64,000 bases of DNA from an uncultured archaeon (lineage in GTDB: Archaea; Asgardarchaeota; Lokiarchaeia; Sigyniarchaeales; SOKP01): positions 160,001-224,000 of the forward strand of contig CAZALK010000001.1 of assembly GCA_964486045.1 (NCBI GenBank), read 5' to 3'. The position numbers and the translations under genes were made by a program. Every line of letters starts with the position of its first letter. Position 1 is the stretch's first letter. The notes beneath the pieces are model-generated. The model was given only the letters and a program-made list of their open reading frames with translations, did no database searches and was not told where the DNA came from. This document shows, in pieces, positions 38,081 to 39,413 of this stretch.

Positions 38081-38095
38081 GCAAAGGTTTAAAAG
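38081..38095 (+). promoter_or_regulatory. canonical BRE-TATA promoter of the TFB paralog
   Basis: GCAAAGG-TTTAAAAG. Confidence 0.55.
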
Positions 38096-38174
38096 GCAAA
38101 CTCCTACCCTTTATTTTTTTAGTGAACTAAATTTTTTAGTTAAATAAAATAAAAAAAATAGTGATCAGAAAAAA

Positions 38175-39413
38175 ATGACAGTGAATAATAAAAGATCAAT
38201 ACCAATTGATCATTCCGCCTTAAAGTGTGATCTTTGTGGTTCTGATGATATTGTTGATGAAGTTCAAGGGTATGTATGTAGGGATTGCGGTGTAGTGCTT
38301 ACAGTTCAAAAATTACAGTATGATCGTCCCTATAATAATGATATCATACAAAATTCAATCCAGTTTGGAACTACTCAAATTGGTACCGTACGAGAAAGAA
38401 GAGCACATCCTCAATCATATCAGCTAGGAAGGATGAACAAACATAATTCGCAGCTTTCGAGCAAAGAATTTGTTGAAAATCGTGCTGCTAAGGAGATTTC
38501 AAGAATTTTTGATTGCTTATCCTTACCGAAGGGATGTGAGAAAAGGGTAAAGGAGATATTTATCGAACTATTCCCTCAGTTACATCCCGGGTCAAAGTAT
38601 AAAAATCCTGAGAAATTATCAGCAATCCTTATCTACATGGTCCTTAAGCTTGAAAATATCGCAATTAAGCGGAAAGATATTGTAAGTACTTCAATGCTTT
38701 CAAAGGAAGAGTTTAATAACTTTATTCTCCAGATAATGCGATTTATGCCTGAGTATACAAAGAGAAACAGGCAAGACTACGTAGCTCAAAAAATATTGGA
38801 AATTACGGAACATTTTGGTCTTGATATGTCATTTTACTTTCTTTCACGAAAAATTTTATCAAAACTATGGGAAAGTATCAAAAACACCACTGACGATGTT
38901 GTTGCTGGTTTGTGCGCGTCGATAACAACTCTCTGCAGCTATAAAGATGTTATTAATGTGAGTTCAATCTGCGACTTATTGAATATTAAGATGAGTACCA
39001 TACAATTCCAAGTGAAGAAAAGAATTTTTGAAAGGTTTAAGCTTCCTGGATTTGTAAGTTTAGTCCGATCCTCTGATTTATTAAAAGGATTTATGGAAAA
39101 AGTAGGAATCTTGGAAGGTGAAAAGATTGAAGTGGAAGTAATCCAAGAGGAGCCTGAAGATTCCGGAGAAAAAGTAGTATCCATTCAACTTGGAGAAGGG
39201 TATCAGATATTTAATCCTCACAATGAACATCATCTTATTGGATGTGTAGGCAATAATAAAACGATTACGCTATGCTATTTAGAGGTACATAACAATCACA
39301 AATGGAGGAAGCGGTCTACTAAAAAACCGAAGAAAAATAAGGGTATATGGTTTGACCTCACTTCTAGTGAGTATTATCCAAAAAAAGGACCTCCTCAGAT
39401 GAGTAAGATTTGA
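38175..39413 (+). CDS. tfb: divergent transcription factor B (TFIIB) paralog with C-terminal extension
   Basis: Zn ribbon CDLCGS...YVCRDCGVV, EISRI...LSLP cyclin repeat 1, second repeat ending INVSSICDLLNIKMSTIQFQV. Confidence 0.82.
   Translation: MTVNNKRSIPIDHSALKCDLCGSDDIVDEVQGYVCRDCGVVLTVQKLQYDRPYNNDIIQNSIQFGTTQIGTVRERRAHPQSYQLGRMNKHNSQLSSKEFVENRAAKEISRIFDCLSLPKGCEKRVKEIFIELFPQLHPGSKYKNPEKLSAILIYMVLKLENIAIKRKDIVSTSMLSKEEFNNFILQIMRFMPEYTKRNRQDYVAQKILEITEHFGLDMSFYFLSRKILSKLWESIKNTTDDVVAGLCASITTLCSYKDVINVSSICDLLNIKMSTIQFQVKKRIFERFKLPGFVSLVRSSDLLKGFMEKVGILEGEKIEVEVIQEEPEDSGEKVVSIQLGEGYQIFNPHNEHHLIGCVGNNKTITLCYLEVHNNHKWRKRSTKKPKKNKGIWFDLTSSEYYPKKGPPQMSKI

Follow-up and report, generated by a model that had tools for sequence, protein, structure and literature searches.

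Among the TFB paralogues described in archaea, TFB3 of the Sulfolobales is tied to DNA-transport and recombination genes, its DNA-damage regulon comprising the Ups pili and the Ced importer (PMC6101594, PMC6101591). TFB3 is truncated, has no helix-turn-helix (HTH) and works with TFB1 via a coiled coil (PMC6101594). TFB2 from Sulfolobus acidocaldarius is a full-length paralogue that drives its own gene set, activates itself and is blocked by a dominant-negative form, and its targets show a similar BRE with an altered spacing (bioRxiv 10.64898/2026.09.06.749720). The archaeal TFB paralogues studied thus act by co-activation, by spacing or with little selectivity (PMC6101594; bioRxiv 10.64898/2026.09.06.749720), and it is an old question whether such paralogues can act sigma-like by reading different promoter sequences. 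The BRE position of archaeal promoters is purine-rich (PMC2602779) with positions -3 and -6 as the main determinants (PMC5512572), and it is read by the HTH of TFB repeat 2 (PMC13502027).

Here we analysed a stretch of 64,000 nucleotides (the window; C1:160001-224000 of G000) from a Lokiarchaeia genome of 5.18 Mb with 31% G+C, for which an earlier note had proposed a divergent TFB as sigma-like master regulator. We regard this protein, named TFBx, as a real TFB paralogue, conserved in relatives, which is very probably part of the regulon found here and probably reads its promoter class, in which a run of T takes the BRE position. It would then be a dedicated, sigma-like initiation factor that serves an optional island whose genes concern DNA transport, recombination and repair. 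We assign a probability of about 0.6 to this reading, in which the binding is presumed. The features of the locus are collected in Table 1. G000 encodes eight ordinary TFBs, two copies of TFBx (on C1 and C16, 74% identical), a TFBx fragment and two TBPs. Because contamination of the assembly is estimated at 7.8%, the second TFBx copy could derive from a related strain. The C-terminal part of TFBx is partially duplicated in tandem directly behind this second full copy, the duplicate beginning at the recognition helix (L330:11830-12219, on C16). The second TBP, which is divergent and present alongside the ordinary one, is encoded on a different contig from the island (L337:1165-1767, on C20) and has no T-run promoter.

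Table 1: Features of the TFBx locus (positions in the window unless a locus is named).
Feature	Position	Strand	Support or remark
Island left arm with elements: small GTPase and neighbours, Fen1/XPG paralogue, small membrane and Zn-ribbon proteins	19168..26825		
Island RadA/Rad51 paralogue with extra HhH, behind element	33399..34678	-	PF08423, E 1e-69
Divergent operon: M50-like HExxH membrane protein, small membrane protein, RadB-like ATPase, Zn-finger protein	35437..37678	-	
Own element of the Zn-finger gene of the divergent operon	ending near 35852		
T-run/TATA element of leaderless type, its TATA box 29 nt upstream of the M50-like start codon	37701..37713	-	49/57 orthologues
Second T-run/TATA element	37783..37795	-	sequence pattern
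Imperfect palindrome, candidate operator of a dimeric regulator	38043..38062		core at fixed position in 22/33 distinct upstream regions
tfbX promoter, purine-rich BRE and TATA box	38081..38095	+	kept in relatives
TFBx, divergent full-length TFB paralogue, 412 aa	38175..39413	+	ORF, homologues, AlphaFold model, structural match
Zinc ribbon C18/C21/C35/C38, RNA polymerase-recruiting module in TFB	38226..38288	+	invariant in 92 homologues; weak PF08271
B-reader/B-linker region, unlike ordinary TFB yet conserved in the TFBx family	38304..38459	+	mean majority 0.67
Two cyclin repeats, about residues 96-285	38460..39029	+	model and structural match
HTH, recognition residues replaced, T275 retained	38958..39023	+	conserved: M273 99%, S274 100%, Q277 99%, Q279 100%
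C-terminal extension: conserved helices, acidic linker, small beta sheet	39030..39410	+	model; no fold match
Terminal K(G/D)PP motif	39384..39395	+	149/173 homologues of >=380 aa
Alpha-alpha toroid membrane protein, 203-aa protein, Hef-like helicase, small Zn protein	40651..46659	+	elements near 40651 and 43328
Hel308/Ski2-like helicase, behind element	47482..50062	-	
Five-gene membrane operon behind one element, Ced-like transporter candidate	52004..59848	+	
Zinc-ribbon-less, core-only TFBx relatives	L298:2136-2834, L375:4001-4699, L376:4001-4693		P0244, P0248, P0252, P0263

A reading of TFBx as frameshifted or as a pseudogene was rejected as its frame is open and conserved at full length, and so was a viral or mobile origin, as there is no relative in viral contigs and the synteny is stable. 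The Pfam matches of the protein are weak and below the cut-off (PF00382, E 0.003; PF08271, E 0.016), and against the canonical TFB family PRK00423 of NCBIfam it scores 16.8 bits and does not reach the cut-off of 384. The AlphaFold model, which was built on 92 homologues, has a mean pLDDT of 77 with block means of 90–97 across residues 101–310. Its best structural match is TFB from P. woesei (1d3u_B, Z 18.4, rmsd 3.1, 197 residues aligned, residues 92–303 of the model) and therefore both cyclin repeats are present. Together with the four zinc-ribbon cysteines, which show no variation among the 92 homologues, this bears out the earlier description of a protein that keeps the zinc ribbon and both repeats. 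The BRE-reading HTH is rewritten as had been proposed, the recognition helix being KMSTIQ in TFBx versus TE(V/A)T(L/I/V)R in all eight ordinary TFBs of G000. Since M273, S274, T275, Q277 and Q279 are conserved at 93–100% in the homologues, this helix is under constraint and not decayed. By register V262, S274 and Q277 align with Q268, V280 and R283 of the P. woesei TFB, which contact BRE bases there, and Y154 and K158 are kept at positions that contact TBP in TFIIB.

The predicted pairing of TFBx with TBP, calculated in the absence of DNA, was weakly supported, scoring 0.33 with 0.02 for the best control, the runs agreeing in at least 21% of the contacts at a partner pLDDT of at least 82. This mark is reached by 58 of 80 solved and by 2 of 110 mismatched pairs, at scores of 0.60 or below by 7 of the 80 and both mismatches, and the score may reflect the resemblance of TFBx to solved TFB-TBP complexes. 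In a quick tree with long branches the TFBx proteins of two families of genomes, f1 and f2, form one group apart from the ordinary TFBs (SH-aLRT 100). Outside its order the TFBx family was not found among 331 genomes of the phylum (E 1e-24, five candidates scored per genome), and a literature search revealed no paper on it.

The extra domain of ~100 aa that had been described for the C-terminus is indeed an added part, only that it comprises ~125 aa and is not a single compact domain. It consists of conserved helices (residues 284–313), an acidic linker, a three-stranded sheet of low conservation and the terminal K(G/D)PP, and among the predicted proteins of G000 only the two TFBx copies show GPP within their last 16 residues. 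Ribosome arrest peptides of the RAPP/RGPP type end on R-(A/G)-P-P with an arginine reported to be irreplaceable (PMC12992588), and such a reading of K(G/D)PP was rejected as a lysine is found instead of the arginine in 96% of the TFBx family. A homology of the tail to Brf was not supported either. The tail modelled alone (pLDDT 64) gave no fold match (best Z 3.4), which is the absence of a match and not a new fold, an ESM Atlas feature search with the tail returned no match, and the Pfam family BRF1 (TBP-anchor domain) did not match TFBx.

The T-run element consists of about five T followed by C (or G/A) and the TATA box. It spans positions -1 to -7 and thereby the TFB footprint, with T at -6 to -3, mostly C at -1 and a fixed spacing. 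G000 contains 60 exact copies, eleven of them within the window. With a positional filter the element precedes 33 of 4465 genes versus 6 for the reversed control, and it is found before 13 of the 43 genes between 15 and 64 kb of the window versus 20 of ~4420 genes elsewhere in G000, which exceeds chance, several of the other bearers being paralogues of island genes. In 80 related loci it stands before the M50-like gene (49/57), the toroid gene (44/53) and the Zn-finger gene (31/35), usually with the TATA box at -29 or ~-60 from the start codon, and the strict motif in antisense orientation was counted 0 times for most gene classes. By a slightly broader pattern, applied to more loci, 245 of the 262 island promoters have it at a fixed spacing. 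When the 13-mer was counted over entire genomes, 135 in number, the values stayed near the reversed control and did not separate genomes with TFBx from those lacking it. The two T-run copies from which tfbX was said to be transcribed divergently were both recovered on the minus strand. Because they lie in the divergent gap and abut the TATA box at a fixed spacing, a terminator was rejected as explanation. Back-to-back pairs of the element occur at 25549-25571, 26413-26459 and 59881-59914 of the window; some of them face short genes missed by the ORF lists, as the gene of a 72-aa membrane protein at ~26169-26387, and one has no obvious gene.

In most of the 80 loci the island genes are located within 8 kb of tfbX. 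The five-gene operon encodes a HhH protein, two membrane proteins, a HerA/VirB4-like protein of 1263 aa and a small protein; the named proteins most similar to the HerA/VirB4-like one are DUF87 proteins from Thermoproteota. A gene for an ERCC4 nuclease stands behind the element on another contig. A small GTPase, its 182-aa partner and a NYN-domain protein are encoded behind an element at 17532-20399 of the window and are conserved in the island in both f1 and f2. A second cluster of T-run promoters (L329; G000 C33:1-13897) lies before LRR, WD40, ERCC4 and small genes, and therefore eukaryote-like repeat proteins may belong to the regulon. Judged from their similarities, the element-bearing genes would serve DNA transfer and a recombination response. 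With such an accessory regulon of ~33 genes in G000 the term master regulator is too wide and was overstated, whereas the sigma-like part of the proposal has gained partial support: TFBx is encoded inside the element-bearing island, its own promoter is free of the element, TFBx and island tend to be gained and lost together, and helix and motif differ together between two families.

The promoter of tfbX looks canonical as had been noted, and a purine-rich BRE was also found in relatives, where A occurs at -3 in 93%, at -4 in 96% and at -6 in 84% of 33 distinct upstream regions. The T-run motif was present before none of 77 tfbX genes. As neither the tRNA upstream regions nor the TATA profiles of all genes revealed a clear housekeeping BRE, calling this promoter ordinary rests on the tfbX promoter itself and on the literature. 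An imperfect palindrome, located ~25–45 bp upstream of the tfbX TATA box, is conserved as well (L050-L129, upstream of tfbX) and suggests a candidate operator for an input regulator.

Within f1, TFBx was detected in 97 of 134 genomes, a count that excludes three weak or fragmentary matches. It occurs together with the island RadA in 70 genomes, while 27 have TFBx only, 10 RadA only and 27 neither (odds ratio 7, with kin that are not independent and incomplete assemblies that inflate joint absence). Seven genomes, being 92–99% complete, lack TFBx and all five island probes. According to the earlier note, genomes without the paralogue should lose the motif, and its retention before the same genes was named as a refutation of the proposal. 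Taken literally this is what we found, because 65 of 75 island promoters keep the motif in those f1 genomes where TFBx was not found. Most assemblies of this set are fragmented, and in six of the genomes (G009, G033, G087, G151, G010, G101) a contig ends in the M50 gene or within 400 bp of it, the usual place of tfbX, which may therefore be unassembled. G036 and G004 also keep the motif with TFBx not detected. The clearest case is G120 (99% complete by markers, 110 contigs), in which the M50 and toroid genes are 205 bp apart with no tfbX between them, 7 of 14 genes on the island contig carry the motif, the open frames are long, and a search for TFBs returned ordinary ones only. Since the genes for RadA, Fen1 and the GTPase partner are gone from G120 too, the absence of tfbX may stem from a recent loss or from a missing contig. 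G060, which is from another order, has a distantly homologous island (C11; L317-L320) with Fen1, Hel308 and RadA paralogues, M50-like, Hef and HerA-like genes; this island showed no T-run promoters, and TFBx was not found in G060.

A second pair of helix and BRE was found in f2, where the recognition helix of the TFBx orthologue is (T/S)ASTVY. In closed f2 genomes the orthologue is encoded inside the same island (G050) or elsewhere with the island also present (G055, 6,035,313 bp). The TATA boxes of f2 islands show G at -3 in 25 of 52 cases versus 9 of 65 in the flanks and a T5 run in 1 of 52, whereas position -3 in f1 islands is T in 70% and G in 3%. The T-run element itself was seen before none of 8 scored f2 orthologues, and the VirB4-like gene of G050 has one loose match in front of it. 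From the aligned promoters and proteins, A, T and G at -3 appear to go with the three helices of ordinary TFB, f1 and f2, respectively, which is the strongest indirect evidence for a reading by the helix and a single evolutionary contrast. Promoter and protein could also drift together by descent, and within f1 residue 277 is Q, H or N with a nearly identical motif. The f2 genomes contain further TFBx-like proteins with again other helices (L289, L291, L370, L374, L288, L290), some of them ending on (G/D)PP, and the helices of G051, G053 and G049 are different again.

The agreement of helix and motif has to be weighed against a model in which the T-run is simply a weak BRE that ordinary TFB reads only with help, TFBx being a co-activator that acts by protein contact as TFB3 does and makes no base-specific contact. 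We consider this rather unlikely, even if TFB3 activates the ups and ced genes without a HTH (PMC6101594), poor-BRE promoters are typically activator-dependent (PMC5512572), the regulon contents of TFBx and TFB3 are alike and G120 keeps the motif without TFBx. TFBx has kept both cyclin repeats and a strongly conserved HTH, and the motif is precise in its bases and spacing and not merely non-purine, with G at -3 where the helix differs. That the element has another reader, namely an ordinary TFB, the second divergent TBP or an island regulator such as the 203-aa protein, and that TFBx is a co-inherited neighbour with another job, we regard as improbable. Eight ordinary TFBs and two TBPs would be available for this and the motif survives in G120, G036 and G004, but all ordinary TFBs keep the standard helix and the second TBP is neither behind a T-run promoter nor on the island contig. 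The gene of the 203-aa protein was not found in G120, G036, G004, G006 and G050 in a run that had no positive control, and the closed genome G006 keeps TFBx together with the M50 and toroid genes, M50 being located behind the motif. An effect of the T-run via DNA shape alone (a rigid dA:dT tract that excludes histones or aids melting, inherited with the island and having no special reader) is very improbable. T-runs are common in a genome of 31% G+C, and in most genomes the whole-genome pattern counts hardly exceed those of the reversed control, but the tract lies directly against the TATA box in a single orientation with a conserved -1 base, is limited to island genes and their paralogues, and is replaced by another sequence in f2 islands.

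If TFBx is indeed the dedicated factor of the T-run promoters, ordinary TFB and TBP would transcribe tfbX from its purine-rich BRE, gated by a regulator at the upstream palindrome and probably on a stress, DNA-damage or mating cue. TFBx, whose fold is well matched, would then join TBP on the TATA boxes, with the altered helix reading the T-run in the BRE position, a site where ordinary TFB should bind poorly, and the zinc ribbon recruiting RNA polymerase. In this way 20–35 promoters would be switched on together, leading to a putative Ced-like DNA importer and to paralogues of RadA, RadB, Hef, Hel308, Fen1 and ERCC4. TFBx would not activate itself. Several relatives encode TFBx versions of 228–235 aa that have no zinc ribbon, carry the same helix type and adjoin the island RadA, and the one copy examined lies behind a T-run promoter at -29; no such copy was found in G000. 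Speculatively, they could occupy promoters without recruiting the polymerase and so be a candidate dominant-negative brake that may end the response in some relatives. Other TFBx-like cores of 330–478 aa (P0250, P0253, P0257, P0258, P0266) carry a different N-terminal part in place of the zinc ribbon, some of which look HTH-like by eye.

In its most far-reaching form this would be a true sigma-like TFB switch in Lokiarchaeia, in which helix and BRE would have evolved jointly to give two codes or more (T-run; G at -3) and which would run a complete programme of DNA transfer between cells and of recombination by a dedicated RadA paralogue, including input via the upstream operator, shut-off by zinc-ribbon-less copies and a Brf-like tail; we put this forward tentatively and with some doubt. 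With regard to the sigma question, an altered helix, an altered BRE and a coherent regulon coincide here, and the second family offers a second helix/BRE pair. If true, this would be the first regulon for DNA exchange to be defined in Asgard archaea, it would mean that these close relatives of eukaryotes have a parasexual programme under regulation, and it could serve as a model for how TFIIB paralogues divide promoter classes.

TFBx resembles TFB3 in that both are TFB paralogues linked to genes of DNA transport and recombination and occur along with a Ced-like system. In contrast to TFB3, it is a full-length protein with a conserved HTH of its own, a promoter class to match and an extended C-terminus, and its gene lies within the regulon. 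Unlike in TFB2, with which it shares the full length, the BRE sequence of its presumed targets is replaced and its own promoter is of the ordinary type. With canonical TFB (P. woesei, 1D3U) it has the zinc ribbon, the two cyclin repeats and the HTH position in common, but the identity is only 14%, the sequence has been replaced in the B-reader, in both G-K/R-S/D-P loops and in the recognition helix, and ~125 residues are added. Brf1 and Brf2 are also TFIIB-family proteins with their own upstream base preference and a C-terminal extension, and Brf2 has a short Pro-Pro "molecular pin" (PMC4671959). The likeness is architectural only, as the structural match of TFBx to them is no better than that to TFB/TFIIB (Z 13.7–16.4) and the tail is unmatched. 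TFBx therefore falls outside canonical TFB by its helix and its PRK00423 score, and outside the TFB3 type, which is truncated and has no HTH, while it shares with sigma-like factors that a promoter element of a separate type is limited to one coherent set of genes. In bacteria, ComX/SigX follow the logic of an ordinary promoter that yields a specificity factor, which in turn switches on DNA-uptake and recombination genes. Fold and machinery are unrelated to those of TFBx, but the logic of the circuit is alike.
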